A stretch of 64,000 nucleotides of DNA from a candidate division FCPU426 bacterium (GCA_963771075.1 CAVYSE010000011.1:141508-205507); one strand, 5' to 3'. Shown: positions 19,997 through 49,597, counted from the first letter of the stretch. The notes: generated by a model not told the origin, from the letters alone. Program-made: numbers and translations.

Positions 19997-20269
19997 TTTC
20001 TCCCCTTAAAATTGTTCAAGACCAGTTTGGTTGAATTCATCAGGCGAAAAACAAGGAAGACACCTACCAGAATTACTCGACCTTTACGCTATTGTATAGC
20101 CGTAATTGAATAGGGGTTATGACAAGGGCCATCTTTCCTGGCACCTGCACGATAATTCCGTTTATTTTATAACTTCCACACTGGAACTCAATCGATGTTT
20201 GAGGTTATATCTATTCCTGGGTCTCCTTTACTCAAATGAAGTTGTGTTTCAGGTATTGCCGAAATGCGA

Positions 20270-20287
20270 TTATGACACCTCTCATAA
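20270..20287. promoter_or_regulatory. Palindromic motif site TTATGAC-acct-CTCATAA (~85 nt upstream of the hemerythrin gene)
   Basis: One mismatch to the 7-4-7 consensus TTATGAC-N4-GTCATAA. A weaker copy lies at 20117-20134. Confidence 0.45.
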
Positions 20288-20370
20288 CCGGGGTTTGATT
20301 TCTTGAATAATATCAGTCGTGGGCAGGCGGTAGGCCACAAATGGATGGAATTTAAAATCTAAGGGGAAAA

Positions 20371-20781
20371 ATGAGTTTGATCGATTGGAAGGACAATTAC
20401 AGTGTTGAGATCGTTGAAATAGACCATCAACATCAGGGTTTTTTCCGACTGATCAACGGTCTTTATGACGCCCTGATCGAGGAAAAAGAAAAGGATTCTT
20501 TAGGGGCGATCATCCTTGAGTTGGAAGCCTACGCGAAAAATCACTTCAAAACCGAAGAAGACTACTTTATCGAATGGGATTTTCCCGGTGCGGAAAAACA
20601 CCGGTTGGAGCATGAGACCTTTACTCGAAACTTGGCCCGGTTTAAAGCCGGGTTCGAGTCGGGTGTCCAAATCGGCATTTCGGTTCAGTTATTGAGTTTT
20701 CTCAGTGCCTGGTTGAAAAACCATATTTTGGTCAGCGACCATCAATACGCCGATTTTATAAAGCAAAAAGCCGTGAAATAA
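20371..20781 (+). CDS. Bacteriohemerythrin (hemerythrin HHE cation-binding domain)
   Basis: The sequence ...W.DNYSVEIVEIDHQHQGFF...HF..EE..F...DFPGAEKHRLEHE shows the typical His/Glu diiron ligands. Confidence 0.8.
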   Translation: MSLIDWKDNYSVEIVEIDHQHQGFFRLINGLYDALIEEKEKDSLGAIILELEAYAKNHFKTEEDYFIEWDFPGAEKHRLEHETFTRNLARFKAGFESGVQIGISVQLLSFLSAWLKNHILVSDHQYADFIKQKAVK

Positions 20782-20854
20782 ACCGGACCATTTATTTCAC
20801 TGAATTTCCATTGATTCCAGCGCGTAAATCCTCGCCATCGGCTTTAATGTTTTT

Positions 20855-21529
20855 ATGAACAGTCCCTCTGAATCACCCCTTTTGAATGTCCTTTTCGAGA
20901 ATGAGGATCTCATTGCCGTCGATAAACCCGTCGGGCAAACGGTAATCCCGGCGCGGAATCAAAAGGATATCCTTCCTCCCCTTGTGGAAATGGTCTCAAA
21001 AAAAATAGGAAAAAAAGCCAATGTGGTTCACCGGTTGGACCAAGACACCAGCGGAATCGTGGTATTCGGGAAGAACGCCCAAACCCATCGGGAACTCTGC
21101 CTTCTCTGGGAAAAAAGAGAAGTCGTTAAGTTATATAAGGCCCTAGTTTGGGGAAAGGTTTCTTCCGGGGAAGGAATAATCGATCATCCTTTGCGACCTT
21201 TTGGTTCGGGCCGTATGGGGGTCGATCCAAACGGAAAGAAAAGTCAAACCCGATATCGGTTACTTCAAAGGGGGACAGGGTCTTCCTTATTGGAGGTGGA
21301 GCCCTGGACCGGGCGACGACATCAAATAAGGGTCCATTTTTATCACTTAGGGTTCCCTGTGATGGGGGATCCGCTTTACGGTCAGGAAAGGCCGGTGGGA
21401 GGTGTGTCCCGGCTTATGCTTCATGCCTATCAGTTGGTCATCCCCCTTCGGGGCCAGACATTGACGATCAATTGCGAGCCAGGAAAAGATTTTGTCAAAA
21501 TCTTAAATGAAAACACAGAAATGAAATAA
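20855..21529 (+). CDS. RluA-family pseudouridine synthase
   Basis: Catalytic motif VVHRLDQDTSGIVVFGKN and RRHQIRVH are present. Confidence 0.85.
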   Translation: MNSPSESPLLNVLFENEDLIAVDKPVGQTVIPARNQKDILPPLVEMVSKKIGKKANVVHRLDQDTSGIVVFGKNAQTHRELCLLWEKREVVKLYKALVWGKVSSGEGIIDHPLRPFGSGRMGVDPNGKKSQTRYRLLQRGTGSSLLEVEPWTGRRHQIRVHFYHLGFPVMGDPLYGQERPVGGVSRLMLHAYQLVIPLRGQTLTINCEPGKDFVKILNENTEMK

Positions 21530-21619
21530 GCCTCCCCTTTTTATAATCAACCCCTTTGTAATCGAAAACCCTTGGTCAAACATACAAGAAGATCTGCGGA
21601 TGAACTATAAAAAGGGCCG

Positions 21620-21637
21620 TTATGACTTAAGTCATGA
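21620..21637. promoter_or_regulatory. Palindromic motif site TTATGAC-ttaa-GTCATGA (~85 nt upstream of the RIC/ytfE-like gene)
   Basis: The core ATGACTTAAGTCAT is a perfect palindrome. Confidence 0.5.
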
Positions 21638-21722
21638 ATCTTTGTGAGGCGACCCCCTACCCTAAAGTGTGTAAGGATCAGAACCGGACGGTTTGGGAAC
21701 AGTCCCATCCCTAGGAGAATGA

Positions 21723-22460
21723 ATGAAAATCAGTCCCGATTGGACGGTTCGGGAAGTCGCTTCGCAAATCCAAGCTTCCATTCCGCTTTTTGAATCGCTT
21801 CATATTGACTATTGTTGCAATGGCCAACAAACATTGAAAGAGGCCTGTGTTACTTTGGAAATCCCCGTGGAAAAAGTCTTGGATTCGCTAGAGCGCATGG
21901 TGAACAAAACCCCCTCCAATCCAGATGCGCCCAACCCATGGGCTAAAAAAAGTATTCCGGAGCTTATTGACCATATCCTGGAAATCCATCACCCATTCAC
22001 GCGAGTCCAGCTCAATCGATTGATGAAATTGTCCGAAAAGGTTTCGCGCCTACATGCGGTCCGCCATCCCGAATTGATCCAATTGAACGGTTTGTTGGTC
22101 AAAATGGCCGAGGAGTTGGAAAGCCACATGGTGAAGGAAGAAGAAGTGGTTTTCCCCTGCCTCCGGAAACTTTGGGATTCGAGGCGAAAGAGAAAAAAAT
22201 TGGAAAATCCTTTTTTCCAAGGGGGGCAGGAAGATCCGGTCCATGTACTCGTCTGGGAACATGGAATGACAGGGGAGGAATGGCAAGAAATCCACCGTTT
22301 AACCAAAGATTACACCACGCCCGCGGATGCTTGCGTGTCCTATCGGTCCCTGTACCAGGGGTTGAAAGAGCTGGAGGATGATTTGCACCGGCACATTCAC
22401 CTGGAAAATAACATCCTATTTTACCGTCTCCAGCAATTGGGACTTTTGGGCTCCCTTTGA
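21723..22460 (+). CDS. Iron-sulfur cluster repair di-iron protein (RIC / YtfE / ScdA family)
   Basis: N-terminal ScdA_N motif (LHIDYCCNGQQTL) followed by hemerythrin-like His/Glu repeats. Confidence 0.8.
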   Translation: MKISPDWTVREVASQIQASIPLFESLHIDYCCNGQQTLKEACVTLEIPVEKVLDSLERMVNKTPSNPDAPNPWAKKSIPELIDHILEIHHPFTRVQLNRLMKLSEKVSRLHAVRHPELIQLNGLLVKMAEELESHMVKEEEVVFPCLRKLWDSRRKRKKLENPFFQGGQEDPVHVLVWEHGMTGEEWQEIHRLTKDYTTPADACVSYRSLYQGLKELEDDLHRHIHLENNILFYRLQQLGLLGSL

Positions 22461-22500
22461 TTCATCCGAAGCGACAACTCAAGAAAGGCTGCTTTTTCAA

Positions 22501-23280
22501 ATGATGACCATGAATCAAATGGACCTAAGGGGGATTGCCCACGGCTGGGAGCAAAAAATCCTTTCCGCTTTTGATGGTTTGAACGAGGGACAAGCGTTGG
22601 AAATCCTCGTGGATTGGGACCCAACCCCACTACATTTCCTGTTATTGAAGGAAAGAACCAGGCTTTTCCGATGGGAAAACCGGGAAAAAAAACCGGATCA
22701 TTGGAAGATCCGCCTCCTGCGAGTGGCGCATGGATTGGGGGAAGCCCCGGCCTCGGAACCGCCGGTTTTGACTCCCCGGCCTAACATCAGCCCGCGACCC
22801 GCCTGGATTGACGATTTGAACCCTTCCTGTGGACTTTTTTTGGACATTCGACCCCTTACTGAGAAAGGGCTGGACCCCTTTCAAATGATTGTCCAATCGG
22901 CGAAAGAGTTAAAACCCGGCCAACACCTGCACTTGGTCCAAAATGAGCAGCCGGAGTCTTTTATTTGTGCCCTGGGTCGGTTAGGGTATGAGGGGTTTGC
23001 CGAAATGAAAGGCGGGGTTTGGAACGCCTATTTCCGAAAGGGTAAGATTCCGCCCACCGGCCAACCGGTAATGGAACTGGATGTGAGACGGTTGACGCCG
23101 CCCCTTCCACTATTGAAGGTGCTGGAATCCCTTCCCTTGATCTCATCGGAAGGCGTTTTGAAGGTATTCTTCCCAAATCGCCCGGATAGTTTGATCGAGA
23201 AACTCCAGGCGCATGGTTTTGAGGTGAAGTGGGAAGCTTCCGAGGGTGGGGCGTTTGTACTTTGGATATGGAAAAAATAA
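22501..23280 (+). CDS. Protein composed of three tandem DUF2249-like modules
   Basis: Three repeats of the pattern LD[LIV]R.L.P..P...[IV]......L..G..L.[VL].....P: LDLRGIAHGWEQKIL..., LDIRPLTEKGLDPFQMIV..., LDVRRLTPPLPLLKVL.... The ORF in the track extends upstream (22378) in overlap with ytfE. ATG 22501 is the first start after the ytfE stop. Confidence 0.6.
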   Translation: MMTMNQMDLRGIAHGWEQKILSAFDGLNEGQALEILVDWDPTPLHFLLLKERTRLFRWENREKKPDHWKIRLLRVAHGLGEAPASEPPVLTPRPNISPRPAWIDDLNPSCGLFLDIRPLTEKGLDPFQMIVQSAKELKPGQHLHLVQNEQPESFICALGRLGYEGFAEMKGGVWNAYFRKGKIPPTGQPVMELDVRRLTPPLPLLKVLESLPLISSEGVLKVFFPNRPDSLIEKLQAHGFEVKWEASEGGAFVLWIWKK

Positions 23281-23379
23281 TCCAAAACCAGCGAAAGCTG
23301 AGTACCGATGTATGCCGGCGTGAATCGACGGGCCATGAACGGTCCTTGGATTCATGAACAATGTTGATTGGGAGCGACG

Positions 23380-24819
23380 ATGACAGAACCGATGATTATT
23401 CAGGGAGGAATGGGCGCCGGGGTTTCCAATTGGGTCTTGGCCCGCGCGGTTTCCCAGACAGGCCAGATGGGGGTGGTTTCCGGAACCGCTTTGGATTCGA
23501 TTATGGTCCGCCGGTTGCAAACCGGCGATATGGATGGAGCCATGCGACGGGCCCTGGTCGCCTTTCCCGACCCTGCCGTGGCCAAGCGCATTTTGGACCG
23601 TTATTTCATTCCCGGCGGCAAAAAAGATCATGAGCCTTTTCGATTGATCCCCATGTTCACCCTTACTCCGCCGAAAGAACTGGTGGAACTCAATGTGGCC
23701 GCCAATTTCGCGGAAGTTTGGCTCGCGAAGGAAGGGCACTCGGGCAAGGTCGGCATCAATTTCCTTGAAAAGATTCAAATGCCCCTCCTTTCCTGCATCT
23801 ATGGGGCCCTGTTGGCGAACGTGGATTATGTCCTCGTGGGCGCGGGCATTCCCCGGGCCATTCCGGCGATCCTCGATAAGTTGTCCCAGCATGAGGATGC
23901 CTCCATGAAGATCTATGTCCAGGGTGCCTCCGCTGAGGAGGAAAGCATCATGACCTTTCGCCCCCGGGATATCCTGTCGGAGATAGGCGAGGCGCTCAAG
24001 CGGCCCCGGTTTCTGGCCATCATCGCCTCGGAGGTCTTGGCCCTAACGCTTGCCAAGAAGTCCACGGGCAAGGTGGACGGCTTCGTAGTGGAAGGCCCCA
24101 CGGCCGGGGGGCATAACGCCCCGCCTCGCGGGCCCCTCCAGCTCAATGACAGGGGAGAACCGCTTTATGGGGTCAAGGATGAGGTGGACCTGCAGAAGAT
24201 CAAGGCCATCGGCCTTCCCTTTTGGGTGGCGGGTTCCATGGCCGACCCGGCTAAGCTCAACGCGGCTTTGGAAGCCGGTGCGGCGGGCCTGCAGGTGGGG
24301 TCCGTGTTCGCTTATTGCGAGGAATCAGGCCTCGCCGACTGGATCAAAAAAAAGGTGATCGAGGGTTTGCGGGCGGGATGGGTGCATGTTTTTACCGACC
24401 CCAAGGCCTCCCCAACGGGTTTTCCCTTCAAGGTGGTGAATGTCCCTGGGACCAATTCCGAATTAGGGGATTATCAAAAGCGAAAACGTATCTGCGACCT
24501 GGGATACTTGCGGAGCCTTTATAAGCGGAAAGACGGAACTCCGGGTTACCGTTGCGCCAGCGAACCCCACGAAGCCTATCTGCAAAAGCAGGGTGAAATG
24601 GCCAACACGGAGGGTCGCAAATGCCTTTGCAACGGTTTAATGTCCAATATCGACTTGTCCCAATCCCAGAAGGATGGGAGCGTAGAACGGGCGCTCGTTA
24701 CTTCCGGTGACGATGTGGGCAGGATCCTGAATTTCCTCAAGGGCGGCAAGGAATCCTATTCGGCCATCGAGGTGGTCGAGTATCTCCTGGGTTCCCGGAT
24801 TCCCGCGGCGGCGGTTTAA
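23380..24819 (+). CDS. Nitronate monooxygenase / 2-nitropropane dioxygenase (NMO, FabK-like) family FMN oxidoreductase, long form
   Basis: The N-terminal motif MIIQGGMGAGVSNWVLARAVSQTGQMGVVSG is typical of NMO. RBS GGGAG precedes ATG 23380. The overlapping minus ORF 23143-23892 is judged spurious. Confidence 0.75.
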   Translation: MTEPMIIQGGMGAGVSNWVLARAVSQTGQMGVVSGTALDSIMVRRLQTGDMDGAMRRALVAFPDPAVAKRILDRYFIPGGKKDHEPFRLIPMFTLTPPKELVELNVAANFAEVWLAKEGHSGKVGINFLEKIQMPLLSCIYGALLANVDYVLVGAGIPRAIPAILDKLSQHEDASMKIYVQGASAEEESIMTFRPRDILSEIGEALKRPRFLAIIASEVLALTLAKKSTGKVDGFVVEGPTAGGHNAPPRGPLQLNDRGEPLYGVKDEVDLQKIKAIGLPFWVAGSMADPAKLNAALEAGAAGLQVGSVFAYCEESGLADWIKKKVIEGLRAGWVHVFTDPKASPTGFPFKVVNVPGTNSELGDYQKRKRICDLGYLRSLYKRKDGTPGYRCASEPHEAYLQKQGEMANTEGRKCLCNGLMSNIDLSQSQKDGSVERALVTSGDDVGRILNFLKGGKESYSAIEVVEYLLGSRIPAAAV

Positions 24820-24855
24820 TCGGCCTTCTCCATGAGGGACTCAAAAGTGACTTAA

Positions 24856-24873
24856 TTATGACAGGGGTCATGT
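24856..24873. promoter_or_regulatory. Palindromic motif site TTATGAC-aggg-GTCATGT (upstream of the phosphoribosyltransferase gene)
   Basis: Matches the recurring 7-4-7 palindrome. Intergenic between the NMO gene and the PRTase gene. Confidence 0.5.
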
Positions 24874-25002
24874 GGCGCCCCGGTACCGGGGACCATAATC
24901 AAATCCAACTTCGCCGATTGGTTTTTGTAAGTTGAAGTTTTGCCCCGCGTCGAAACAATTTGGGGGGAACCTTTTAAGTCGCGTGTTGGGGATCAAACGA
25001 AC

Positions 25003-25704
25003 ATGAAACTCAAATTAAAATCCAAGTTTCCCTTTCGGGACCGAGACCAAGCCGCCCGGATGCTTTGCGAGAAACTTTTCCATTATCGAGGGCTGAACCC
25101 GCTGGTCCTCGGCCTTTCTCCCGCGTCCGTGCCCATGGCCTGTCTCTTGGCCCGTTACCTGAAGGGTGAGGCGGATATTTTATTGGTCGAGAAGATTTAT
25201 TCTCCCGAAAACCCCCATTTGGCGTTGGGAGTACTGGCGGAAGGCGGCGCTTTTACGCTCGCGCCCGGGGGAGGCCAAATGTGGGTTCCGCCCCATTTTC
25301 TGGAAGAAGAAATGCGCAAACTGTCCCACGGCCTTCAGGAACGCCGGAAATTATATACCCCCCAAAGGGCGCTCCTCTCCTGCGCGAACCGCGTCGTGAT
25401 CCTGATCGACGATCTCGCCAAAACGGGGGTAAGCCTTTGGGCCGCCTATCGGGAGGTGGATGGCCGGCATCCCGCCCAGGTGGTGGTAACGGTCCCGGTG
25501 GCGACTCCCGCGGCCTTGGAACTGTTGCGACGGGAAACGGAAGAAGCCTTTGCCCTCTGGTCCGGCGATCAATGGTCTACCCCGTCGGAGATTTACGAAA
25601 TCAACGTGAAGATCAGCGAAGAGGATGCCGCGGAATTCCTGCATCCCGTCGATCCGGACCTGTTGGTTTCCCGTGGACGAGCCCACTCGATTCCCGCCAA
25701 CTAA
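25003..25704 (+). CDS. Type I phosphoribosyltransferase-fold protein
   Basis: PRPP-binding motif VVILIDDLAKTGVSLWAA. ATG 24940 is an alternative start. Confidence 0.65.
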   Translation: MKLKLKSKFPFRDRDQAARMLCEKLFHYRGLNPLVLGLSPASVPMACLLARYLKGEADILLVEKIYSPENPHLALGVLAEGGAFTLAPGGGQMWVPPHFLEEEMRKLSHGLQERRKLYTPQRALLSCANRVVILIDDLAKTGVSLWAAYREVDGRHPAQVVVTVPVATPAALELLRRETEEAFALWSGDQWSTPSEIYEINVKISEEDAAEFLHPVDPDLLVSRGRAHSIPAN

Positions 25705-25754
25705 ACTCCTTGTGCCTATTTGGAAGCGCGCCCCTATAATGAGCCTTTCTTAAA

Positions 25755-26519
25755 TTGATAGGAGTGGTATCCCTTTTGTCCCCCTTCGTTTGGATGCTCC
25801 TGAGCGTGATCGTGGTAAGCCTCCTATCCCTGATCGGGATATCCCTTTTCGCGCTCAGCCATAAAACTTTCCATGCCCTTGTCTTCGTCCTGGTGGCCTT
25901 GGCCGTGGGGGCCCTCTTTGGGGACGCCTTTATCCATCTTTTGCCCGAGGCCATGAGGGAATCCTCCCAAGCCCTGGACGCCTCCCTGACGGTCATCGGC
26001 GGCATCCTCCTCTTTTTCATTCTCGAGAATTTCCTCCACTGGCGCCATCAGCACTCGGACGAGCATGAGGAAATCCAACCTTACGGTTATTTAAACCTGA
26101 CGGCGGACATGGCCCACAATTTTATCGATGGCCTCTTGATCGGGGGTTCCTACTTGGCGGGCATGAAGCTGGGAATGGCCTCAGCCCTGGCGGTGCTATT
26201 GCACGAGCTACCACACGAATTCAGCAATTTCGGAATCCTGGTGAAATCGGGGTTCTCCAAACAAAAGGCGATCTTTTTGAATTTCCTCACCGCCCTTACG
26301 GCCATCCTGGGCGGGCTGGCGGCCTGGTGGCTTGGGGGATCGGTGGCGGGATTTCTACGGGTCCTTTTGCCCCTGACCGCGGGGAGTTTTATCTATATCG
26401 CAGGAAGTGACCTGGTGCCCCAACTCCACAAGGACGTTAAAAGCGCCCGGGCCCTGGTCCAGTTCGTCGCCATCCTGACGGGCGTGGGGCTGATGCTCCT
26501 TATCAAGTTGTTGGAATAA
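25755..26519 (+). CDS. zupT: ZIP-family divalent metal transporter (ZupT-like)
   Basis: HNFIDGLLIGGSY...HELPHEFSNFGIL is the ZIP signature with conserved His residues in TM4/5. Start codon uncertain (TTG 25755 or ATG 25794). Confidence 0.8.
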   Translation: MIGVVSLLSPFVWMLLSVIVVSLLSLIGISLFALSHKTFHALVFVLVALAVGALFGDAFIHLLPEAMRESSQALDASLTVIGGILLFFILENFLHWRHQHSDEHEEIQPYGYLNLTADMAHNFIDGLLIGGSYLAGMKLGMASALAVLLHELPHEFSNFGILVKSGFSKQKAIFLNFLTALTAILGGLAAWWLGGSVAGFLRVLLPLTAGSFIYIAGSDLVPQLHKDVKSARALVQFVAILTGVGLMLLIKLLE

Positions 26520-35410: not shown

Positions 35411-35461
35411 TTTATTCAGGAGAATTGTAGATTTAACTGCGAAAGGGAAGTATGAGCCAGC

Positions 35462-38323: not shown

Positions 38324-38645
38324 CCACTCAAGGGATCTTCTCCACCCCCGAGTGGAGGGTTTCCTGGTAATTTTTTATCTTGCTATTTAAAGGAGAAATA
38401 CCTTTTCCACTGGTTTTGTTGAAAAAGCGTTATTCGAAAATTTGAAGAGAATTGATCCGGAATAGAACCGTTGAACAATGAGGGGTTTAAAAGAGTCGAT
38501 AAGGTTGCAGGCCATTTGTCGTGGCAATCATTTTCCTTTGGCGCATCGTTTGTCGAAGAAAATTTGGATGACCAACGTCATAGACAAAGGATTGGGTAGG
38601 CGACAAACTACCACGAATTTATTTTTTTATTTCCAGGGAGGAAAT

Positions 38646-40697: not shown

Positions 40698-40704
40698 CTA
40701 AACC

Positions 40705-41739
40705 CTACTTGAACTTGGCCATGTCCAGATGGGACTGCACAAACTGGGTGATCATCGCGACCTTGCCCGGGTCCTGGTGGGTCAAGAGGGGTTCCAAACC
40801 GTCCAGTTGCTTGGCGGTATGGAAAGTATCGGTGGAAACCAATAAAAGCGGTATATTGCGCTGGTTGGCCAAGGAAAGCACATCCGGCGAGGGAAGGATA
40901 TTGTTCGTTAGGATCACTCCGGAGGTGCCTCCCTCCAGGGCGGCCAGGATCATATCGCTCCGGTCCCCGCTGGTAACGACCAATTTTTTATCCTTATTGA
41001 AGAGGGTAAGCCTCCTGGCGCTGTCCACGGACATGGCTCCAATAATGATGTGGCCCACCTCATTGCCCAATCCTCCTTCTCCGGCGAGGGTTTTCGAGAA
41101 AAGCACCTCGGACAGGTAGGCCATAGTGAAATGGTTCAGTTCGGGTTTCAAAGGCAAGATCCCCAGGATGGGAATACCCAACTGGTTGATCTGGGGCAAA
41201 TAGGTCGTTTTGAAATCCTCCAGGTCGTGCACCTTGTTGAGGATGACGCCCTTAAAACGAACGTCCTGGATCGGCAGGCATTTTTTGATGCAGACCAGGT
41301 CGTCCGCGATGGAACCCTCCGAACCGCTCACCACGAGGATCAACTCCCCGCCGAGGGCTTTGGCGACGGAGACGGCGTCCAGGTGCACGGACATTCCGTA
41401 ATTCAAGTGCATGCCGCCTTCCACGAAAAGTAGTTCCTTCCCGGCCCCGGCGTGGGTGGCCACCTCGCGCAGTTTTTCAGTGGTGGTCGCCGCGTCGTAT
41501 TTGTATTTCAACTTGGCGTGCTCGAAGCCGATGGAGATGTCTTCCGGGTTTTCATGAAGGTTCCAGAGGTGGGTCAGCAGGGCGGAATCGTAGTCCCAAA
41601 GGCGTTTTTTGTGATAGATCAACCGGTCGCCGAAGGGTTTCATGTAACCGGACTGTTGTCCTAGCGCGGCGGCAAGGCCGATGATCACTCCCGTTTTGCC
41701 GGAACTTTTGCTGCTTGATCCAATGACGAGTGTTTTCAT
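40705..41739 (-). CDS. Standalone BioD-like (AAA_26) plus DRTGG domain protein, homologous to the N-terminal regulatory domain of long phosphotransacetylases
   Basis: N-terminal P-loop-like MKTLVIGSSSKSSGKTGVIIGLAAAL. C-terminal DRTGG-type segment VVTSGDRSDMILAALEGGTSGVILTN. No PTA catalytic domain. The stop overlaps the start of the downstream ACD gene. Confidence 0.75.
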   Translation of the reverse strand: MKTLVIGSSSKSSGKTGVIIGLAAALGQQSGYMKPFGDRLIYHKKRLWDYDSALLTHLWNLHENPEDISIGFEHAKLKYKYDAATTTEKLREVATHAGAGKELLFVEGGMHLNYGMSVHLDAVSVAKALGGELILVVSGSEGSIADDLVCIKKCLPIQDVRFKGVILNKVHDLEDFKTTYLPQINQLGIPILGILPLKPELNHFTMAYLSEVLFSKTLAGEGGLGNEVGHIIIGAMSVDSARRLTLFNKDKKLVVTSGDRSDMILAALEGGTSGVILTNNILPSPDVLSLANQRNIPLLLVSTDTFHTAKQLDGLEPLLTHQDPGKVAMITQFVQSHLDMAKFK

Positions 41740-44340
41740 TTCTTTTGGGCCCTTTCCGAGAGCAAAACTCTCACATCCAAAGCTTTAACACCTTTTCCCT
41801 GTTCGTAAACAACCAGGGGATTGATCTCAATGTCGGAAATTTTCTCGCATTTCCGAACCAACGAACCGAGTTTGATGATGGCGTCCACGACGCCATCCAT
41901 GTCTTTTTTGTCCTCTCCCCGAACCCCAAGGAGCAGGGGATAGATCTTGGTTTCTTTGATCATGGCCAGGACATCCGATTTGGAGAAGGGAACGGACCGG
42001 AAGGAAACGTCTTTCATTACCTCGACGTAAACCCCGCCCATGCCGCACATCACGATGGGGCCGAAAGAACGGTCCCGCCGGGCACCCACGATGGTTTCCG
42101 TACCTTTTTTCACCATCTCGTTGACTTCAACGCCTTCGATCACCGCGTTGGGATTGTGTTTTCGGCAGTTAAAGAGGATGGCTTCGTAGGCATCCATCAC
42201 CTCTTGCTGGTTTTCCAGGTCCAAGGCGACGCCGCCGACGTCGCTTTTATGAAGGATATCCCGGGAAACCACCTTCATGACCACCGGGTATCCGATTTTT
42301 TCAGCCGATTTAACCGCTTCTTCCAGGGTGCGGGCAATCGAGTTTTTGGGCATGGGAACCCCGCAAAGTTCCATGATCTTCTGTCCCTCGTGGGCCAATA
42401 AAAAAGACCGGCCGTCCGCGGCCGCCTTGTCCAATACGGCATTGACCGCGTCCACCGGGATGTCGTGCTCCACGGGAAAGCCAGGGGGAGACAGGTTATG
42501 CCGGTACTGGGTCATTAAGGCCCCCAAGCAGGAAACGGCCGAATAGGTATCCTCAAAAACGGGCGCATTATCCTGCCGCAGTGAGAGAATGGCCCGCTCG
42601 GTGGGTTCGCCCCCGAAAAGAGAGAACACGATCGGCTTCCCGCCATCGCGGTAACGGACCGTATTCTCGCGGATCATGGTGGCCAGGTTGTCCACGTCAA
42701 AAACCGCCGTCTCACAATAGAGGGCAATGACAGCGTGGATGTTTTCCAGCCTCAAGGCCGCGGCCAAGGCGCCGTCGTAGTCGGAGGACCGGGCCTGACC
42801 CGTCAGGTCGATGGGATTCTTGATGGACCCAAATTCCGGAACTTCCTTGGCGAAGGCTTTTTTCATCAGTTCCACGTCGTCGTAAAGCGGGACCTGGTAT
42901 TTTTCGCAGGCGTCGGTGGCCATGACCCCGATACCGCCTCCGTTTGTGATGATGACCGTATTCTCGCCCCGGGGCGCGGAACTGGACGTGAAACTTTTGC
43001 ACCAGTTAAAGGCATCCTGGAAATTCTCAGCCCTCAAGACCCCGCATTGCTTGACAATGTTATCGAGGATCTCGTCCGAACCGGCCAGGGCGCCGGTGTG
43101 CGAGGCGGCCGCCATGGCGCCCCTTTTGGAACGTCCGGATTTGATCATGATGACGGGCTTCTTCCGGGTCACCCGGTTAATGGTGGAGATCATCCGCTCC
43201 CCGTCCTTGATGCCCTCGGTATAAAGCATGATGACCTTGGTCTGGGGATCGTCCACCAAATATTCCAAAAGATCGGCCTCGGTGATATCCGCCTTGTTGC
43301 CCACGGAAGACATGGTAGAAAGCCCGATGTGGGCCACCGCCGTCTTGCCGATCATGCCGATACCCAGCGCGCCGCTCTGGGTGATGATGGCCACGTGGCC
43401 TTTCTGGATCTGGGGTCCAAAGGTGGCGTTCAGGTCGGCGTTGGCCGAGTAGATACCGAAGATGTTGGGCCCCATGACCCGCATGCCATGATCCAGGGCG
43501 AAGGACACCAGGGCTTTTTCTTCGGCCACGTTGCCCGTCTCGGAAAAACCGGAGGTGATGACGGGCAGGAACTTGACGCCGTTGGCCGCGCATTCCTTGA
43601 CCGAATCCATGACGAACTTGGCCGGGACCGAGATGCAGGCCAGTCGATGGGCTCCTCTATCTCCGCGAAGGCTTTTCGCCATGGTCAGTCCCAAGCACCT
43701 CCCCGCCCTTGGGGTTGATGGGATACACCTTGCCCTTGATAGCCGCCGGAAAAATATTCTCCACGATCTTGTAACCCACCTTGTCGGGGCTGGCGGAAGC
43801 GCCCACCACGGCCACCGAGCGGGGCTCGAATAGGTATTTGATGTCAGGTCGATTAGGTTGTTCAACGGTTCCTCCGCGGAAGGTCATTTTCAGCTCAACC
43901 ACATTCGTGTTCGTGCGCTTCTGCAAGTCAAATCCTTGATTCTCGAAAAGATGCAGCATGGCGGTGTTTTCCTGAAGGACCTCGGCGGTGAACCCGAAGA
44001 GCCCCTGCTTCTTCGCCAACATGGTCAGGTAGGAAAGAAGCTCCGTTCCGACCCCCTTGTTATGATAATCGTCCTTCACGACGAAGGCGACTTCGGCGGA
44101 ATGCTGGTTTTCCTGGATGCCGTATTGCCCCACCCCGATGATCTCCTCCCGCCCCTGGTCCTCCGCGAAAGCCAGGATGACCATTTCCTTGCTATAGTCG
44201 ATCACGACGAATTCCTGAAGCCTTTCGTGGGGCATGTCCTTACGCACCGACATGAATCGTCGGGACATGCTCTGGTCGGACAGGGAATAGAAAAAATCCT
44301 TAAGGCCGGGTTCGTCATTGATCTTGACGGGGCGCATCAA
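41736..44340 (-). pseudogene. Pat-like protein lysine acetyltransferase (N-terminal GNAT fused to an NDP/ADP-forming acyl-CoA synthetase), reading frame broken near 43690
   Basis: ORF 43657-44340 encodes a GNAT domain (...AEVAFVVKDDYHNKGVGTELL...) followed by the start of the CoA-binding domain (RSVAVVGASASPDKVGYKIVENI...KVYPINPKGGEVLG). ORF 41736-43865 carries the remaining CoA-binding, CoA-ligase and ATP-grasp domains; its first ~55 codons are off-frame. The junction lies in a CCCCAAGGGCGGGGAGG tract. Confidence 0.65.
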
Positions 44341-45739
44341 AAGCCGCAGGCCGGATTCGGTCGTCCGGCGGGTCTCCAGGGACTCCGGGTACTCTCCGCG
44401 TTTTCCAGGGAATAAAGGCCTGGTCCTTGTAAATCAAATGGTTCTTCTTCGCTTCCTCCAGCAACCAGGGCCGGAACTTTGGGTGGGCGATAGAAATGAT
44501 GTCCATTGCCCTTTCTCGCAGGTTCTTTCCGTGAAGATAGGCGATCCCATATTCGGTCACCAGGTAATGAATGTCGCCTCGGGTAAGGGAAATACCGGCC
44601 CCTTCATGGAGGAAAGGCACAATCCTGGAAACCTGTTCGTTATCCGCAGTGGATTGCAGGGTCAGGATGGTTTTCCCTCCTGGCGCGAGCACGGCGCCCC
44701 GCATGAAATCCGCCTGGCCCCCGATTCCACTGAAAAACAAGTGGTCCAGGGATTCGGCGGTAGATTGGCCGGTCAAATCGACCGACAGGGCGCTGTTAAT
44801 GGCGGTCATATTGTGATTGCTCGCGATGATCAGTGGATTGTTGGTGTAATCAATGGGCCGGAATTCGACGGAAGGATTGTCATGGATGAATTCGTAGGTT
44901 TCCTGGGTTCCCATGCAAAAGCTGGCGATGGTCTTGCCGGGGTTAAGGTTTTTCCTGGAGTTGTCGATCACGCCTTCCTTCATCAGTGCCACGATTCCGT
45001 CCGAGAGCAGCTCGGTATGCACTCCCAAGTGCTTTTTATGCCTTAAATTAGCCAAGATGGCGTTGGGGATACTGCCGTAACCCACCTGCAGGGTATCTCC
45101 GTCCTGAACGAAACGGGCGATATATTTCCCGATACGGTTGGCGATCTCGTCGGAAACTTTCGGTTCGTACTCCAGCAGCGGCTCGTCGTGGTGGACAATG
45201 AAATCCACGTCATCGGCGTGAAGGAAGGTGTCGCCATGCACACGAGGCATATGGCTGTTCGCCTGGGCGATCACGATACGGGCGTTGGCTACCGCCGCCT
45301 TAGTGATATCGACGCTGACCCCCAGGCTCATGTAGCCATGCTGGTCCGGCATGCTGGTTTGGATCAGAGCCACATCCACTGGTACCAACTTCCGGTTGAA
45401 TAGATCGGGCACTTGGGAAAGAAACAGGGGCGAATAGTCGGCCAGACCCTGGTTGACCGCCTCCCGGGTGTTATCGCCTATGAAAAAAGAATTGTGGCGG
45501 AAGTTTTGCTTGAATTTCTTGTCGGTGTAGGGTGCGAGGCCTAAGGTCCAGACGTGGATGACTTCGGTGTCAAAAAAGGCCTTGGGATGGTCTTCGATAT
45601 ATTTGATCAGGGCCCCGACCAGGTACTGGGGTTCGCCACAGCCGGTGCCGATATAGATCCGGTCGCCGGGATGGATATGACTGAAAACCTCGTATTCAGT
45701 GGCAAATTTGGAAGGATAATTTTTTCTTAACGATTCCAT
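44315..45739 (-). CDS. Acetyl-CoA hydrolase/transferase family protein (Ach1/ScpC/Cat1-like CoA-transferase)
   Basis: N- and C-terminal AcetylCoA_hydro domains are present (GDRIYIGTGCGEP..., ...VTEYGIAYLHGKNLRERA). ATG 45739 is the probable start. The track ORF extends to 45811. Confidence 0.8.
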   Translation of the reverse strand: MESLRKNYPSKFATEYEVFSHIHPGDRIYIGTGCGEPQYLVGALIKYIEDHPKAFFDTEVIHVWTLGLAPYTDKKFKQNFRHNSFFIGDNTREAVNQGLADYSPLFLSQVPDLFNRKLVPVDVALIQTSMPDQHGYMSLGVSVDITKAAVANARIVIAQANSHMPRVHGDTFLHADDVDFIVHHDEPLLEYEPKVSDEIANRIGKYIARFVQDGDTLQVGYGSIPNAILANLRHKKHLGVHTELLSDGIVALMKEGVIDNSRKNLNPGKTIASFCMGTQETYEFIHDNPSVEFRPIDYTNNPLIIASNHNMTAINSALSVDLTGQSTAESLDHLFFSGIGGQADFMRGAVLAPGGKTILTLQSTADNEQVSRIVPFLHEGAGISLTRGDIHYLVTEYGIAYLHGKNLRERAMDIISIAHPKFRPWLLEEAKKNHLIYKDQAFIPWKTRRVPGVPGDPPDDRIRPAAFDAPRQDQ

Positions 45740-45886
45740 TTGGTTTTCATTCCATTCGCAAAACCGGGCGCTTACCGGGCTTTGGAGAACCATCCGCCGG
45801 CCAAGAATCACCGAAGAGAAAGTAGGGCCGGAGACCGCTTAACCCTTTCAAGGACGCGTTGATTATAAGTTAATGACCCTTTCATG

Positions 45887-45904
45887 CTATGACTCAAGTC
45901 ATAT
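45887..45904. promoter_or_regulatory. Palindromic motif site CTATGAC-tcaa-GTCATAT, with an overlapping degenerate copy at 45871-45888
   Basis: Lies in the divergent region between the CoA-transferase/pat operon (minus) and the deacetylase gene (plus). Confidence 0.5.
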
Positions 45905-46090
45905 CATGAAGGGGCGGGGTTAATTTTTTCCCAAAGGACGAAATTATTAACAACACTCATTTCATTATTGGATAATTGTCCGGACAAAAACAATTGAACT
46001 TGGTGAAATTACCTTAACTTGACTTAGCCAAAGGACAAAATTAACATGCATTATTATTTTCATTTTTTTTAGTTTTTTAAAAGGCCAAGA

Positions 46091-47044
46091 GTGAACGGAT
46101 CCAAGCCTTCCCTCGGAATTGTGTATGACGAGCTTTGCCTGAAGCATCTGCAGGATGCTGACCATCCCGAATCCCCTCGCCGGCTTCTCGCTATTCAAAA
46201 CGCTTTGGATCAAGCGGGACTTTTGAAACGAGCCCTGGCGATTCCATGCCGTAGAGCGACCGATGAAGAATTGAACTTGGTCCACCGGGCTGAATACATT
46301 GAAAAAGTCAAATCGATTTGCAGGAACGCCCCGGCCCAATTGGGTCCGGATGTTTTTATTTCCACCCCCGAAAGCCTGGATGCGGCGCTTCTCTCGGCGG
46401 GCGGCGGGTTTGAGGCGGTCGACGCGATCATGAACCAAAAGGTGACCCGGGTGTTCTGCAATACCCGTCCTCCAGGCCACCATGCCTTGCCCAACCAGGC
46501 CATGGGATTTTGTGTTTTCAATAATATCGCGCTCTGCGCCCGGTATGCCCAAACAAGGCATAAACTCAATAAAATCCTCATTGTCGATTGGGATGTGCAT
46601 CACGGGAACGGAACGCAGGATATTTTTTACGAGGATCCGGACGTATTTTATTTCAGCAGCCACCGGTTCCCCTTTTATCCCGGGACAGGGGCCCGTATCG
46701 AGACGGGAGAGTGGCCAGGGAAGGGCTCGACCCTGAATGTTCCATTTCCGCCGGAGTCGGGGGACGAGGAATATCTGGGGAGTTATAAAAGACTGCTATT
46801 GCCTGCGGCCCTTGAATTTAAACCGGACCTGATCCTGATCAGCTGCGGTTTTGACGCCCATGGCCGTGATCCTTTGGGGGGGATGAACCTCACCGAAAAA
46901 GCATACGCCCACTTGACCGATCTGGTGGTTGGAATCGCTAACCAAACTTGCGGAGGAAAGATCGTTTCCTTCCTCGAGGGCGGTTACGATCTGGAAGCCC
47001 TTGGGTTGTGCGCGGTGGAGCATGTTCGCCAGTTGATGGCGTGA
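46091..47044 (+). CDS. Histone deacetylase-family (class II HDAC / AcuC-like) protein deacetylase
   Basis: Motifs RPPGHHA, DWDVHHGNGTQ and the EGGY loop are present. GTG start at 46091. The overlapping minus ORF 45965-46663 is judged spurious. Confidence 0.8.
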   Translation: MNGSKPSLGIVYDELCLKHLQDADHPESPRRLLAIQNALDQAGLLKRALAIPCRRATDEELNLVHRAEYIEKVKSICRNAPAQLGPDVFISTPESLDAALLSAGGGFEAVDAIMNQKVTRVFCNTRPPGHHALPNQAMGFCVFNNIALCARYAQTRHKLNKILIVDWDVHHGNGTQDIFYEDPDVFYFSSHRFPFYPGTGARIETGEWPGKGSTLNVPFPPESGDEEYLGSYKRLLLPAALEFKPDLILISCGFDAHGRDPLGGMNLTEKAYAHLTDLVVGIANQTCGGKIVSFLEGGYDLEALGLCAVEHVRQLMA

Positions 47045-47186: not shown

Positions 47187-47204
47187 ACATGACAACTGTC
47201 ATAA
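47187..47204. promoter_or_regulatory. Palindromic motif site ACATGAC-aact-GTCATAA (~120 nt upstream of the beta-barrel gene)
   Basis: Matches the 7-4-7 consensus with one flank mismatch. Confidence 0.5.
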
Positions 47205-47325
47205 TAACTTCACCCCGCTGGTCCTAAAATCGCTTCTCGTTGATTCTTTTCCCACGACAATCAATTGACCTCCCGGATTTTGTCGGTTCGCGAGAGCGAA
47301 AAAAACTTTCAAGGAGAAAGAAAAT

Positions 47326-48558
47326 ATGAAAAGGTTTTTGTTTTTTTCGATTTTGACTTCCCTGTTTCTGGCGGGATGGGGTACTAAGGTTTTCGCCCAA
47401 GCTACCGAAGTTAAGAATCAGGGAACCCCGGCGGTGACTCCTGAGGCGACGATGGCCGTACCCGCCTCTCCGGTTATAACGGTGGGTGGCTTGGTGGATG
47501 CGTACTATACCTACAACTTCACCAACTCCAGCAAAAACATGAACGGCCACGGAAACGTTGGATACAGCTATGACAACCTTAACGCCGTAGGTTTGAACAA
47601 CGTCGACGATGTTTTCTCCCTGGGCGTGGCGGAATTGATCGTGAAGATGAAGCAGGGCGACGTCAGCGGGATCGTGGCGATATGGACACAGATGGAAGCG
47701 GGCAACTCCGTTATGAACATCTTGGTGGCCAACGCGACCTACTCCCCCGGGCAATTCGCCTTCATGGCCGGCCGTTTCGGTGATTTTATGGGGAACGAGG
47801 CGTTCGATACCAACATGAACTGGAACTACAGCCATTCGCTCATGTACAACGATACCCTGCCCTTGTGGCTTCAGGGTGTTAGCGCCGCCTATATGCCTTC
47901 CGATTCCTTCAAGGTCACGGCTTACGCGACGGAAGGATGGATCAACGACCCGGGTAATATGAACGATTATGGGAAAACCTACGGGTTGGCGATTAACATC
48001 AAACCCGATGAGGTTTGGGGCGTGAAGTTGAACGGAATTGCCGGGCCGAACGAAGGGTATTACTCGAGCGTCACGAATCCGGGGGACTCCCTTTACGTGG
48101 GCGAACTCATCCTCAAGTGCACGGCGACCCAAGACTTTTCATGGGCCCTGGATGCCGAGTATGGCGGGTTGGACCCTGTGGCCGAGGATCATTTGGCCAG
48201 CTTGAGCAGTGAGACCTTCTGGGGCGCGGCCCTTTACGGCAGATACAACATCGCGGCGGACTGGAACATTGGACTTCGTCTGGAAGAATTGGAATCGAGC
48301 AATAGCTGGCTTTATAACGGCATGATTCCTTCGGTCACACCTTATGTGGAAACCCGAGAAGCCACTTTGACGCTATCCAACCAAGTCACGAAAAACCTGT
48401 TGCTCCGCCTGGAAGGCCGTTACGACATGGCCTTGACCGGCGGAACGATGGATGCGGCCGAGACCACCTCTCCCACGGGCGGGGTTTACGTTGGGCCTTA
48501 CGCGGGCGGGTCCGGCGATCAATTGACGACCACCGCCAGCGCGGTGTTGAGCTTCTAA
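47326..48558 (+). CDS. Outer-membrane beta-barrel protein (putative porin)
   Basis: Signal peptide, then alternating amphipathic beta-strands rich in Y/N/G and a C-terminal ...AVLSF ending in an aromatic residue, which is an OMP signature. Confidence 0.6.
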   Translation: MKRFLFFSILTSLFLAGWGTKVFAQATEVKNQGTPAVTPEATMAVPASPVITVGGLVDAYYTYNFTNSSKNMNGHGNVGYSYDNLNAVGLNNVDDVFSLGVAELIVKMKQGDVSGIVAIWTQMEAGNSVMNILVANATYSPGQFAFMAGRFGDFMGNEAFDTNMNWNYSHSLMYNDTLPLWLQGVSAAYMPSDSFKVTAYATEGWINDPGNMNDYGKTYGLAINIKPDEVWGVKLNGIAGPNEGYYSSVTNPGDSLYVGELILKCTATQDFSWALDAEYGGLDPVAEDHLASLSSETFWGAALYGRYNIAADWNIGLRLEELESSNSWLYNGMIPSVTPYVETREATLTLSNQVTKNLLLRLEGRYDMALTGGTMDAAETTSPTGGVYVGPYAGGSGDQLTTTASAVLSF

Positions 48559-48582
48559 TCGAGCCTTAAGGGAACATTTTTC

Positions 48583-48650
48583 CAAAGGCTGAAACCTCTA
48601 TTTGACGCCGTGTTTTAATTTCTCTGAGGTTTCAGCCTTTTATTTTTTGA
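48583..48650 (+). terminator. Candidate terminator after the beta-barrel gene (13-bp stem AGGCTGAAACCTC...GAGGTTTCAGCCT with a long loop, then a T-run)
   Basis: Perfect 13-bp inverted repeat followed by TTTTATTTTTTG. Confidence 0.45.
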
Positions 48651-48702
48651 CGGTTGATCGGATGGGCTTGTGCGTATTCATCTAATAAAGGAGGCAGGAA
48701 CA

Positions 48703-49302
48703 ATGACGACTCAAAGTGAACCCATGAAGCTTGCGGACACTACTGCTAATCCGGCACCCTTGGGCTTGTTGGGCTTCGGGATGACGACCGTGTTGTTAAA
48801 CTTCCACAACGCGGGGTTTTATGCTCTGGATTCGATGGTCTTGGCTATGGGCATTTTTTACGGCGGCTTAGCCCAGGTGATCGCAGGGGTCCAAGAATGG
48901 AAAAAGAACAACACCTTCGGCGCCACGGCCTTTACTTCCTACGGGATGTTCTGGCTGACCTTGGTGGCTCTGCTGACCCTGCCCAAGCTGACGTTCCTGG
49001 GTTGGGCTGGCCCGGATGCCAACTCCTTCTCGGTTTACCTGGCTCTCTGGGGTATCTTTACATTGGTTATGTTCGTGGGAACTTTAAAACTCAACCGCGC
49101 TCTACAGGTTGTTTTCGGATCGCTCGTTATTCTTTTCTTCATGCTTTCCGCCGGCAAGGCAATGGGAAGCGAGGATATCATCCACATCGCCGGGTATGAG
49201 GGTATATTCTGCGGGGCATCGGCGATCTATACCGGGCTGGCCCAGGTCCTCAACGAGGTTTACGGAAAAGTGGTTTGGCCGCTGGGACCCGTGAAGAAAT
49301 AG
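48703..49302 (+). CDS. satP: Succinate-acetate/proton symporter (GPR1/FUN34/YaaH family, SatP)
   Basis: Hallmark N-terminal NPAPLGLLGFGMTT and a 6-TM profile. RBS AAGGAGG lies 8 nt before ATG 48703. Confidence 0.85.
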   Translation: MTTQSEPMKLADTTANPAPLGLLGFGMTTVLLNFHNAGFYALDSMVLAMGIFYGGLAQVIAGVQEWKKNNTFGATAFTSYGMFWLTLVALLTLPKLTFLGWAGPDANSFSVYLALWGIFTLVMFVGTLKLNRALQVVFGSLVILFFMLSAGKAMGSEDIIHIAGYEGIFCGASAIYTGLAQVLNEVYGKVVWPLGPVKK

Positions 49303-49361
49303 TCGGACAAAGTTAAACGGCTATTAGGACTCATTTTAAATTATTTTAGTTTTATGTTTAT

Positions 49362-49392
49362 GAAACCCGCCCCAATGGGCGGGTTTTTTGTT
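49362..49392 (+). terminator. Rho-independent terminator after satP
   Basis: CCCGCCC-caat-GGGCGGG stem followed by TTTTTTG. Confidence 0.75.
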
Positions 49393-49597
49393 AATTACCA
49401 TGAAAAGATTATAGAAATAAGCCAAATTTCTTCTTTTTACTCTTTGGAAATCCTCTTTATTTTCATGACTGAAATCATAGAAATAACGGGCTCGATTTTT
49501 GTCGTAATCCATTATGTTTCTTCGGCCCTATACCTTGCCCTTTAGTTGGCATGTCGTTACAATTTATAAAAGGAGTTGAAAAGGGGAGGAATGCGCA

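Follow-up and report, generated by a model that had tools for sequence, protein, structure and literature searches.

A putative CRP/FNR-family class II regulon shared by iron-centre repair and acetate genes in candidate division FCPU426

Introduction

Operators read by CRP/FNR-family transcription factors are the closest described counterparts of the element analyzed here, the recurrent palindrome tTATGAC-N4-GTCATAa found in a 64,000-nucleotide stretch of DNA from a candidate division FCPU426 bacterium (GCA_963771075.1 CAVYSE010000011.1:141508-205507), the whole of which is from now on referred to as the window. FNR proper ligates a [4Fe-4S] cluster through Cys20, 23, 29 and Cys122 and recognizes TTGAT-N4-ATCAA through Glu209, Ser212 and Arg213, with Glu209 and Arg213 reading the G and the A-T pairs in the TGA of the operator. 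CRP proper contacts cyclic AMP (cAMP) through Glu72, Arg82, Ser83 and Ser62 and recognizes TGTGA-N6-TCACA through Arg180, Glu181 and Arg185. At class II CRP/FNR promoters, the operator is centred near -41.5 and the activator stands in place of the -35 element. Bacillus subtilis Fnr carries a C-terminal iron-sulfur cluster, and CooA binds haem through Cys75/His77 in the beta-roll together with an N-terminal Pro. In Pseudomonas, Anr and Dnr use one and the same FNR box. The targets of Anr also include radical-SAM haem enzymes and genes of acetate pathways, and patZ, encoding an acetyltransferase that modifies Acs, is under CRP control.

The HcpR1 branch, represented in Geobacter, Desulfuromonas, Desulfotalea and cyanobacteria, has the predicted box wyTTGAC-N4-GTCAArw, and dnrN, encoding RIC, is a core gene of regulons responding to nitric oxide (NO) (PMC1274295). 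Rodionov et al. 2005 further found that residue 180 co-varies with the third arm base, Arg going with G and Ser or Pro with T (PMC1274295). HcpR2 of D. desulfuricans is described as containing Fe-S clusters that are damaged by NO (PMC5701242). An oxygen-binding hemerythrin is regulated by Anr in P. aeruginosa (10.1101/802934), and in E. coli cAMP-CRP activates acs (PMC6724240).

Here, we propose that the FCPU426 palindrome is the operator of a CRP/FNR-family factor controlling one class II regulon, a reading of the sequence to which we assign a probability of roughly 0.7. Compared with the HcpR1/DNR-type TGAC-N4-GTCA box, the operator is a variant changed in one base, and the class II design is textbook; new here are the lineage, the outer-base specificity and the target mix, as well as the sensor if confirmed. 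A literature search on regulation in FCPU426 found no paper, and a search for the exact motif returned only Rodionov 2005, with the related TTGAC-N4-GTCAA, and an unrelated Pseudomonas paper.

Results

A palindrome confined to promoter regions

TTATGAC-N4-GTCATAA with up to three mismatches occurs 13 times in the window, compared with 1.27 +/- 1.14 (maximum 5) in 100 dinucleotide shuffles. The core ATGAC-N4-GTCAT, allowing one mismatch, occurs 11 times where 0.99 are expected, and seven cores are exact (21622, 24858, 36292, 38308, 38568, 45889 and 47189). A 22-nucleotide (nt) position weight matrix (PWM), trained on eight sites and used to scan the window together with 636 kb of related loci, identified ten window sites scoring at least 14.6 bits, the next-best score being 9.6 bits; block-shuffled windows contained 0-2 sites of at least 13 bits. 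The ten sites span 20117 to 49480, with none in 1-20000 or 49500-64000. All ten are intergenic in a window that is about 88% covered by open reading frames (ORFs), the odds of which are by simple arithmetic about 0.12^10. They are listed below, hexamers resembling a -10 element being given with their distance in nt beyond the 18-mer (offset).

20117 to 20134: box TTATGACAAGGGCCATCT, serving the radical-SAM gene on the minus strand; 15.8 bits, right half weak; TACAAT 20 nt beyond on the minus strand; centre 129.5 bp from the radical-SAM ATG
20270 to 20287: box TTATGACACCTCTCATAA, preceding the gene for bacteriohemerythrin; 24.0 bits; TAATAT at offset 20; hemerythrin ATG 92.5 bp from the box centre
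21620 to 21637: box TTATGACTTAAGTCATGA, preceding the RIC operon; 23.0 bits; TACCCT at offset 20
24856 to 24873: box TTATGACAGGGGTCATGT, preceding the phosphoribosyltransferase-ZIP pair; 19.8 bits; CATAAT at offset 20
36290 to 36307: perfect box TTATGACAAGTGTCATAA, between the divergent VIT1 and histidine kinase genes; 27.8 bits; TTATAC at offset 20 in the kinase direction
38306 to 38323: box GTATGACCCTTGTCATAA, preceding the minus-strand gene hyp160 and distal to acs; 25.0 bits; minus-strand TTATAT at offset 20; hyp160 ATG 70.5 bp away
38566 to 38583: box GGATGACCAACGTCATAG, proximal to acs; exact core; 71.5 bp ahead of the corrected acs start at 38646
45887 to 45904: box CTATGACTCAAGTCATAT, preceding the minus-strand CoA-transferase/GNAT - Pat-like - DRTGG operon, with the HDAC gene on the opposite side; 23.7 bits; TATAAT 19 nt beyond on the minus strand
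47187 to 47204: box ACATGACAACTGTCATAA, preceding the genes for the BBP2 porin and SatP; 24.4 bits; TAAAAT at offset 20
49463 to 49480: weak box TCATGACTGAAATCATAG, before the regulator gene; 14.6 bits

The original prediction, made from the window sequence, had listed at least seven strong and about three weaker palindromes, all intergenic and none in the first 20 kb or last 14 kb. The PWM agrees with this placement and recovers the seven strong sites as well as 20117 and 49463. A weak site at 45871 and a third half-site at 36316 did not stand: both score below 8 bits, the former being part of a window-specific extended palindrome missing in the related loci L007 and L008, and the latter not being conserved in three orthologous VIT1/kinase intergenic regions. 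The list had also missed the strong site at 38566, which looked intragenic through an over-long acs ORF. The longest acs ORF begins at 38478, its ACAS_N domain starting only at residue 93. We reassign the start to the ATG at 38646, preceded by GGGAGG, so that 38478-38645 is a 56-codon over-extension and 38566 is a promoter box.

A short palindrome present in many copies within 30 kb might also be a dispersed repeat, similar to repetitive extragenic palindromes, miniature inverted-repeat transposable elements (REP/MITE) or terminators, or a chance cluster, in either case without regulatory role. The 45887 copy is in fact nested in a longer, 38-bp inverted repeat (45877-45914, CCCTTTCATG ... CATGAAGGGG). 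However, besides the tenfold excess over expectation, no similarity was found among the 40-nt flanks of the ten copies and an Rfam scan of the whole window returned zero RNA families. Each copy is found upstream of a gene and keeps a fixed distance to the -10 element, and the boxes form conserved islands in otherwise diverged orthologous intergenic regions. Because the flanks of the copies are unrelated, a mobile repeat was rejected; the common flanks and promoter independence of REP/MITE elements are not seen, and we regard a repeat or chance origin as extremely improbable. The outer arms of the 45877-45914 repeat are conserved in neither L007 nor L008 and are probably fortuitous or species-specific. 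ATGAC-N4-GTCAT itself has the make-up of a CRP/FNR-type operator, namely two 5-bp arms with a TGA core placed 4 bp apart in promoter regions, and the boxes very probably represent a genuine operator set of such a factor.

Promoter geometry

Within the window, a -10-like hexamer is found exactly 20 nt past the 18-mer in 8-9 of 12 box-gene directions, counting the TATAAT of the CoA-transferase operon at offset 19. This spacing places the box centre at -41.5. The same register holds in related loci, where 18 of 65 box-gene directions show TAnnnT at offset 20, compared with about 0.9 per other offset (binomial P ~6e-19). The weak site at 20117 could be assigned to the divergent radical-SAM gene on the same basis, TACAAT being placed at exactly 20 nt on the minus strand. 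No recognisable -35 hexamers were found at the box promoters. An operator near -41.5, a -10 element about 30 bp from the dyad and a missing -35 are the hallmarks of a class II promoter, here with predicted transcription starts. Further, a two-hexamer sigma-70 scan of 19900-25000 gave a single match, compared with 4.1 in shuffles, and none at boxes; this scarcity fits -35-less promoters but is not positive evidence for them. Overall, the boxes are likely to work by class II activation.

For HcpR2, an Fe-S protein of the Crp family, repression of hcp that ends once NO has damaged the cluster has been proposed (PMC5701242). By analogy, the FCPU426 factor could be a repressor whose box, lying over the -35 region, occludes RNA polymerase, with derepression upon sensor damage, and RIC and hemerythrin are indeed stress-induced genes. 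A repressor, however, needs no single-bp registration with the -10 element, and here the 20-nt spacing is fixed in two independent lineages; the -35 hexamers that would be occluded are also missing. We therefore consider repression improbable.

The HDAC gene does not share this geometry. It lies 195.5 bp downstream of the 45887 box with no -10 element at offset 20 and has a sigma-70-like promoter of its own, TTGACT-N17-TAACAT, for which reasons it may not be a direct target.

A candidate regulator with an FNR-like recognition helix

A single CRP/FNR-family protein is encoded in the window:

49598 to 50296, plus strand: CRP/FNR-family regulator, candidate reader of the box; PF00027 (1.1e-19) and PF13545 (1.7e-14)

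Membership in the superfamily is clear, with 75 PDB family members matching at E <=1e-3. The AlphaFold2 model shows a helix at 132-155 and a helix-turn-helix at 183-206, and its best Foldseek matches are all CRP/FNR proteins. These neighbours are generic members of the family, including the P. gingivalis HcpR structure 9day at 17% identity. The recognition helix, TTVETCIRTF, is FNR-like (TVETISR in E. coli FNR). In pairwise alignments with E. coli FNR and CRP reference sequences, Glu209 and Arg213 of FNR are kept, Ser212 is replaced by Ile, and position 180 of CRP (RETVGR) is Val. The attribution of the palindrome to an FNR/CRP-type factor in the original prediction is thus well founded, resting on the 5-N4-5 architecture, the TGA core and the window's only CRP/FNR gene with its TVETCIR helix.

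The factor shares with FNR and Anr the 5-N4-5 operator, the TGA core, the Glu and Arg of the helix and the class II spacing of -41.5, and the kinds of genes targeted overlap with those of Anr. Unlike FNR, it has no N-terminal Cys-X2-Cys-X5-Cys and no Cys122 equivalent, its candidate ligands instead lying inside the beta-roll, and with Ser212 exchanged for Ile its box reads ATGAC as opposed to TTGAT, differing at the first and last arm positions. Both the cysteine cluster and the box/helix pairing of FNR sensu stricto are therefore lacking. It is not a CRP sensu stricto either, the cAMP contacts being replaced and position 180 being Val. HcpR1 belongs to the same family and has the same TGAC-N4-GTCA core, and HcpR regulons often include hemerythrin-like and redox genes (PMC1274295). 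In contrast to HcpR1, the outer base in FCPU426 is A and not T, and the helix is VETCIR. HcpR lacks a cysteine cluster (PMC1274295), whereas the FCPU426 regulator has four invariant cysteines, and acetate-metabolism genes have not been reported for HcpR. No hcp, frdX, nor or nir genes, the core targets of HcpR/DNR, are found within the window. With the HcpR/DNR-type regulators, whose sensing is haem-based, the factor has the TGAC-N4-GTCA core and the dnrN/RIC target in common. Its sensor region differs, and PDB and family searches gave no specific sequence affinity; it may belong to this group.

The outer base of the FCPU426 box is A (tTATGAC), compared with T in FNR/HcpR1 and G in CRP. A metagenome scan with the RIC protein gave only relatives from other phyla at 38-44% identity (soil and peat loci L059-L138), which provide a comparison. 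Among them, an exact TGAC-N4-GTCA, in most cases CGTGACAAAAGTCATCG, is found in 55 of 74 RIC promoters at a distance of about 85-90 bp from the start, and only 14 further copies were found in the other 327 kb of those loci. In 49 of the 55, TAnnnT follows 20-21 nt past the equivalent 18-mer position, and a class II RIC promoter, as judged from this layout, is widely conserved in other phyla. A Dnr-like regulator (helix VRELVSR, Arg180, zero cysteines) is encoded nearby in 34 of 80 RIC loci, usually just upstream. Like the FCPU426 factor, these Dnr-like regulators from Acidobacteriota-like contigs go with a (G/A)TGAC-N4-GTCA(T/C) box and TAnnnT 20-21 nt downstream. They differ in their VRELVSR helix, the absence of cysteines, their position beside RIC and the restriction, within these short loci, of their boxes almost entirely to RIC, which suggests a small local regulon; the target set of the FCPU426 factor is larger and more varied. 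The pairing of Val180/Ile184 with an outer A, and of Arg180 with G, would add to the known recognition code.

Three distant homologues (23-31% identity) from Armatimonadota and Bacteroidota, L051 9877, L056 9877 and L057 4370, have TATGA(C/T)-N4-(G/A)TCATA 120-160 bp upstream of their own regulator genes. An E..IR helix is present in L051 and L056, and the L057 alignment ends short of the helix. This hints that the Ile184/outer-A pairing may reach well beyond FCPU426.

Conservation of box-gene pairs in related loci

The regulator gene is 94% identical to a gene in a candidate division FCPU426 metagenome-assembled genome (MAG). A genome scan with the regulator identified 37 FCPU426-lineage ortholog/paralog loci and 17 distant-homologue loci of other phyla (L042-L058). 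Of the 37 FCPU426-type loci, 20 contain the exact 10-base core, which all 17 distant loci lack. The 636 kb around orthologous and paralogous regulators contain 77 sites of at least 13 bits compared with 2-6 in shuffles. By crude gene calls, 56 of the 77 are intergenic in sequence that is 87.5% ORF-covered, and the remainder mostly fall within a few bases of over-extended ORF starts.

The regulators could be separated into three types: type A is cysteine-rich with a VETCIR helix, type B cysteine-rich with VETSIR, and type C cysteine-free with VETCIR. About 13 of 15 type-A ortholog loci have a box 40-230 bp upstream of the regulator, several of them strong (L007, L008, L023, L031 and others), which lends weight to the degenerate site that the original prediction had noted upstream of the window's regulator gene (49463). 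Across the 24 full-length regulator loci of all types, boxes pile up in the first kb upstream, where nine are found.

Individual box-gene pairs are conserved as well. The box between VIT1 and the kinase is the most conserved island of its intergenic region in L005, L006 and L031, and the histidine kinase is the most widely conserved target after the regulator, homologues following a box in more than 10 related loci. Boxes also precede the hyp160 orthologue in L005, the acs orthologues in L007 and L008 and a phosphoribosyltransferase homologue in L018, and the 45887 box of the CoA-transferase operon is conserved in L007 and L008. Other recurrent box-linked genes encode hemerythrins, cytochromes c, YceI, Pat-like acetyltransferases and further kinases. 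FCPU426 orthologues of RIC were retrieved through a protein database search and contig look-ups. In L142, whose RIC is 69% identical, the box before RIC is identical to TTATGACTTAAGTCATGA, and related boxes precede RIC in L139 and L140; the RIC promoters of L142 and L139 have TAACCT or TAATCT at offset 20. L140 has, at its radical-SAM promoter, a box of 20.8 bits followed by TACATT at offset 20.

The gene order radical-SAM / hemerythrin / pseudouridine synthase / RIC / DUF2249-TusA / NMO / phosphoribosyltransferase / ZIP is itself conserved, RIC-DUF2249-TusA-NMO being kept in L139, L140 and L143 and phosphoribosyltransferase-ZIP in L139 and L140. In MAG MFD09286.bin.2.88, which represents another FCPU426 genus, the RIC-NMO-phosphoribosyltransferase-ZIP cluster is located about 18 kb from the regulator and its VIT1/kinase neighbours (L006 and L139, which share contig CAVTWJ010000014.1, 248-279 kb). 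With cluster and regulator on one contig, the box-rich island of 30 kb is syntenic. The interpretation of the sites as one regulon and not a generic repeat, as put forward in the original prediction, is strengthened by their purely intergenic placement, the unrelated flanks, the fixed -10 spacing and the recurrence in relatives of the pairs with VIT1/kinase, hyp160, acs, CoA-transferase, hemerythrin, RIC and radical-SAM genes, the last being the reverse of a refuting outcome named in that prediction, namely orthologous promoters lacking the motif.

A decayed box, GTATGAGCCAGCTCAACC, is located at 35442-35459, just beyond the VIT1 stop and upstream of a small Cys-rich ORF and a gene for a 205-residue hemerythrin-domain protein; it scores below 8 bits. 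Good boxes (17.5-20.7 bits) are found at the orthologous position in L005, L006 and L031, where they precede a cytochrome c gene (L005, L006) or a hemerythrin-domain gene (L031).

A cysteine-rich effector pocket

Across 25 relatives with identities down to 57%, C85, C96, C97 and C106 of the regulator are without exception conserved, and C98 almost without exception (motif FGTCCCFGGGxYPC). The four residues align with CRP positions 62, 73, 74 and 84, which we take to lie in or beside the phosphate-binding cassette lining the cAMP pocket. As would be expected of residues working as one unit, C96, C97 and C106 are lost jointly in type-C paralogues. The CRP contacts Glu72, Arg82 and Ser83 are replaced by Thr95, Tyr104 and Pro105, making cAMP an unlikely ligand, and Ser62 is replaced by Cys85. 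The regulator has none of the N-terminal cysteines of FNR, the alignment beginning at FNR residue 35, and the position of FNR Cys122 is occupied by Val.

A profile search against 1.84 billion representatives gave 137 matches at E <=1e-30, no named or characterised member being among them. In many of the unnamed TVETxIR relatives, the corresponding loop of the beta-roll contains two to six cysteines. Such relatives include P0245, P0247, P0248, P0255, P0263, P0274 and others, with for example FGACCCF..YHC, FCCLPALD or, in P0248, a Cys/His-rich insertion. This suggests a broad, unstudied group of putative pocket-cysteine sensors.

HcpR2 and B. subtilis Fnr show that an Fe-S sensor can sit at differing places on the CRP/FNR scaffold, HcpR2 being, as described, a precedent for an Fe-S Crp-family NO sensor. 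Cys96-98 and Cys106-His107 of the regulator presumably fall in the loop equivalent to that of Cys75/His77 in CooA; His107 is not conserved (H/N/S/Q).

Which factor reads the boxes

Several observations weigh against the regulon as proposed. Matches to the -10 element are weak at acs (CAAACT), VIT1 (AGTTTA) and the regulator promoter (CGTAAT, offset 22), and the autoregulatory box of the closest orthologues has no clear -10 element at offset 20. FCPU426 genomes encode 2-4 paralogues whose helix is identical or almost identical (VETCIR or VETSIR), some of them cysteine-free, so that the box may be shared among paralogues or read mainly by another one. L140 has an additional Dnr-like regulator adjoining RIC. 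For the sensor, the AlphaFold2 predicted local distance difference test (pLDDT) falls below 50 for residues 75-105 (window 49820-49912), exactly the cysteine-rich stretch, the rest of the model being more confident; this fits a cofactor-dependent loop but proves nothing. A redox-active or metal cofactor bound by the four cysteines is a conjecture, and we put it at somewhat less than even.

The boxes might accordingly be read chiefly by another CRP/FNR paralogue of type B, type C or the Dnr-like kind, the product of the 49598 gene being one member of a cascade. Several paralogues are found per MAG (L005 and L019; L031 and L024; L013, L038 and L040; L014, L028, L035 and L041), their recognition helices being identical or nearly so. 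Perfect boxes accompany the type-C loci L036, L039 and L040, one of them before a RIC homologue, and the Dnr-like regulator of L140 is divergent from RIC. Even so, boxes just upstream of the regulator are a feature of type-A genes and rarely precede type-B genes, the box-rich island is linked to the type-A gene in several genera, and the Dnr-like helix with its Arg180 pairs with an outer G and not A. Taken together, a different principal reader appears unlikely. Given the autoregulatory boxes, the physical linkage and the recognition code, the product of the 49598 gene is probably a reader of the box, or the reader.

Putative target genes and possible signal

The genes that the boxes are predicted to serve are as follows.

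18896 to 19996, minus strand: radical SAM/SPASM protein, TIGR04053 (AhbD/NirJ relative); 447 bits against a cut-off of 395
20371 to 20781, plus strand: bacteriohemerythrin; NF033749, 127 bits
21723 to 24819, plus strand: operon of RIC/YtfE, DUF2249-TusA and NMO-like protein; TIGR03652, 224 bits, and Pfam matches
24940 to 26519, plus strand: phosphoribosyltransferase and ZIP metal transporter; Pfam
35462 to 36223, minus strand: VIT1-family iron/manganese transporter; PF01988, 225 bits
36394 to 37740, plus strand: membrane histidine kinase; Pfam and NCBIfam
37762 to 38244, minus strand: hypothetical 160-residue protein (hyp160); zero family matches
38646 to 40628, plus strand: AMP-forming acetyl-CoA synthetase (acs), start corrected
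40705 to 45811, minus strand: operon of acetyl-CoA hydrolase/transferase-GNAT fusion, NDP-forming acyl-CoA-synthetase-like (Pat-type) and DRTGG/Pta-N-like proteins
46091 to 47044, plus strand: HDAC-type deacetylase, possible but uncertain target; PF00850
47326 to 49302, plus strand: BBP2 porin and SatP/YaaH-family acetate/succinate channel

The original list of downstream genes is retained for hemerythrin, RIC, phosphoribosyltransferase, VIT1/kinase, acs and its neighbour, CoA-transferase and the beta-barrel, the HDAC gene being the doubtful entry. The second half of the island amounts to a full acetate module comprising porin and SatP, Acs, CoA-transferase-GNAT, Pat-type and DRTGG proteins, with the HDAC-type deacetylase adjoining. 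In the window, a 1-nt indel (an additional A at 44411) interrupts the CoA-transferase-GNAT ORF, which is a single ORF of 627 residues in the same-species contig L001. Over about 18 kb, window and L001 differ only in one 1.2-kb patch (window 43179-44411, L001 2680-3913) that carries all 63 mismatches and all 10 indels and is located at the GNAT / Pat-like N-terminus; strain recombination or local assembly noise could be the cause. Downstream of the radical-SAM gene, an extracytoplasmic function (ECF) sigma/anti-sigma pair is encoded at 16269-18175, and the 720-bp gap before it contains only a very weak half-box (18349, 9.6 bits).

RIC, hemerythrins, DUF2249 and the NMO-like protein are typical of NO/redox regulons (PMC1274295), and hemerythrin is typical of low-oxygen regulons such as Anr (10.1101/802934). 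An AhbD/NirJ-like radical-SAM enzyme is likewise typical of the latter, and VIT1 and ZIP point to iron/metal balance. Based on this gene content, the signal is likely oxygen limitation, NO/redox stress or iron-sulfur status. As with E. coli CRP, acetyl-CoA synthetase would be under the control of a CRP-family protein, here through a box different from TGTGA-N6-TCACA.

Discussion

From sequence, we infer both binding by the 49598 protein and activation upon binding. In the mechanism we propose, a dimer of the regulator, possibly together with paralogues having the same helix, would bind the box centred at -41.5, substitute for the missing -35 element and recruit RNA polymerase. The promoters thus activated over about 30 kb would be those of the radical-SAM gene, bacteriohemerythrin, RIC - DUF2249/TusA - NMO, phosphoribosyltransferase-ZIP, VIT1, the kinase, hyp160, acs, the CoA-transferase/GNAT - Pat-like - DRTGG operon and porin-SatP, and probably that of the regulator itself. 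The signal would be read by a metal or iron-sulfur centre on C85, C96, C97 and C106 in what was formerly the cAMP pocket.

In its most far-reaching form, which we consider doubtful, the regulator would represent a new CRP/FNR sensor class with an Fe-S or metal centre in the former nucleotide pocket, acting as the main activator of FCPU426 under low oxygen, NO or altered iron status and coupling this signal to acetate uptake, acetate activation and protein acetylation/deacetylation. If true, this would be the third independent placement of a redox cofactor on the scaffold, the other two being N-terminal in FNR and C-terminal in Bacillus Fnr. To our knowledge, cofactor ligands in the phosphate-binding cassette of the cyclic nucleotide monophosphate (cNMP) fold have not been described before, and the four-cysteine site in the effector pocket may be a new mode of redox or metal sensing for this scaffold.

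The results offer a first picture of transcriptional control in FCPU426, a candidate phylum without a cultured member. The predicted operator, promoter design, candidate regulator and targets can be used in the analysis of peat and soil metatranscriptomes. The wiring is unusual in that RIC, hemerythrin and iron transporters are combined with acs, a Pat-like acetyltransferase, a CoA-transferase and an acetate channel. CRP-family control of acetate activation is familiar; a putative operator held in common with iron-centre repair genes is not. The presence of the same operator on both gene sets suggests that acetate scavenging and protein acetylation may share a signal with the protection of iron centres.

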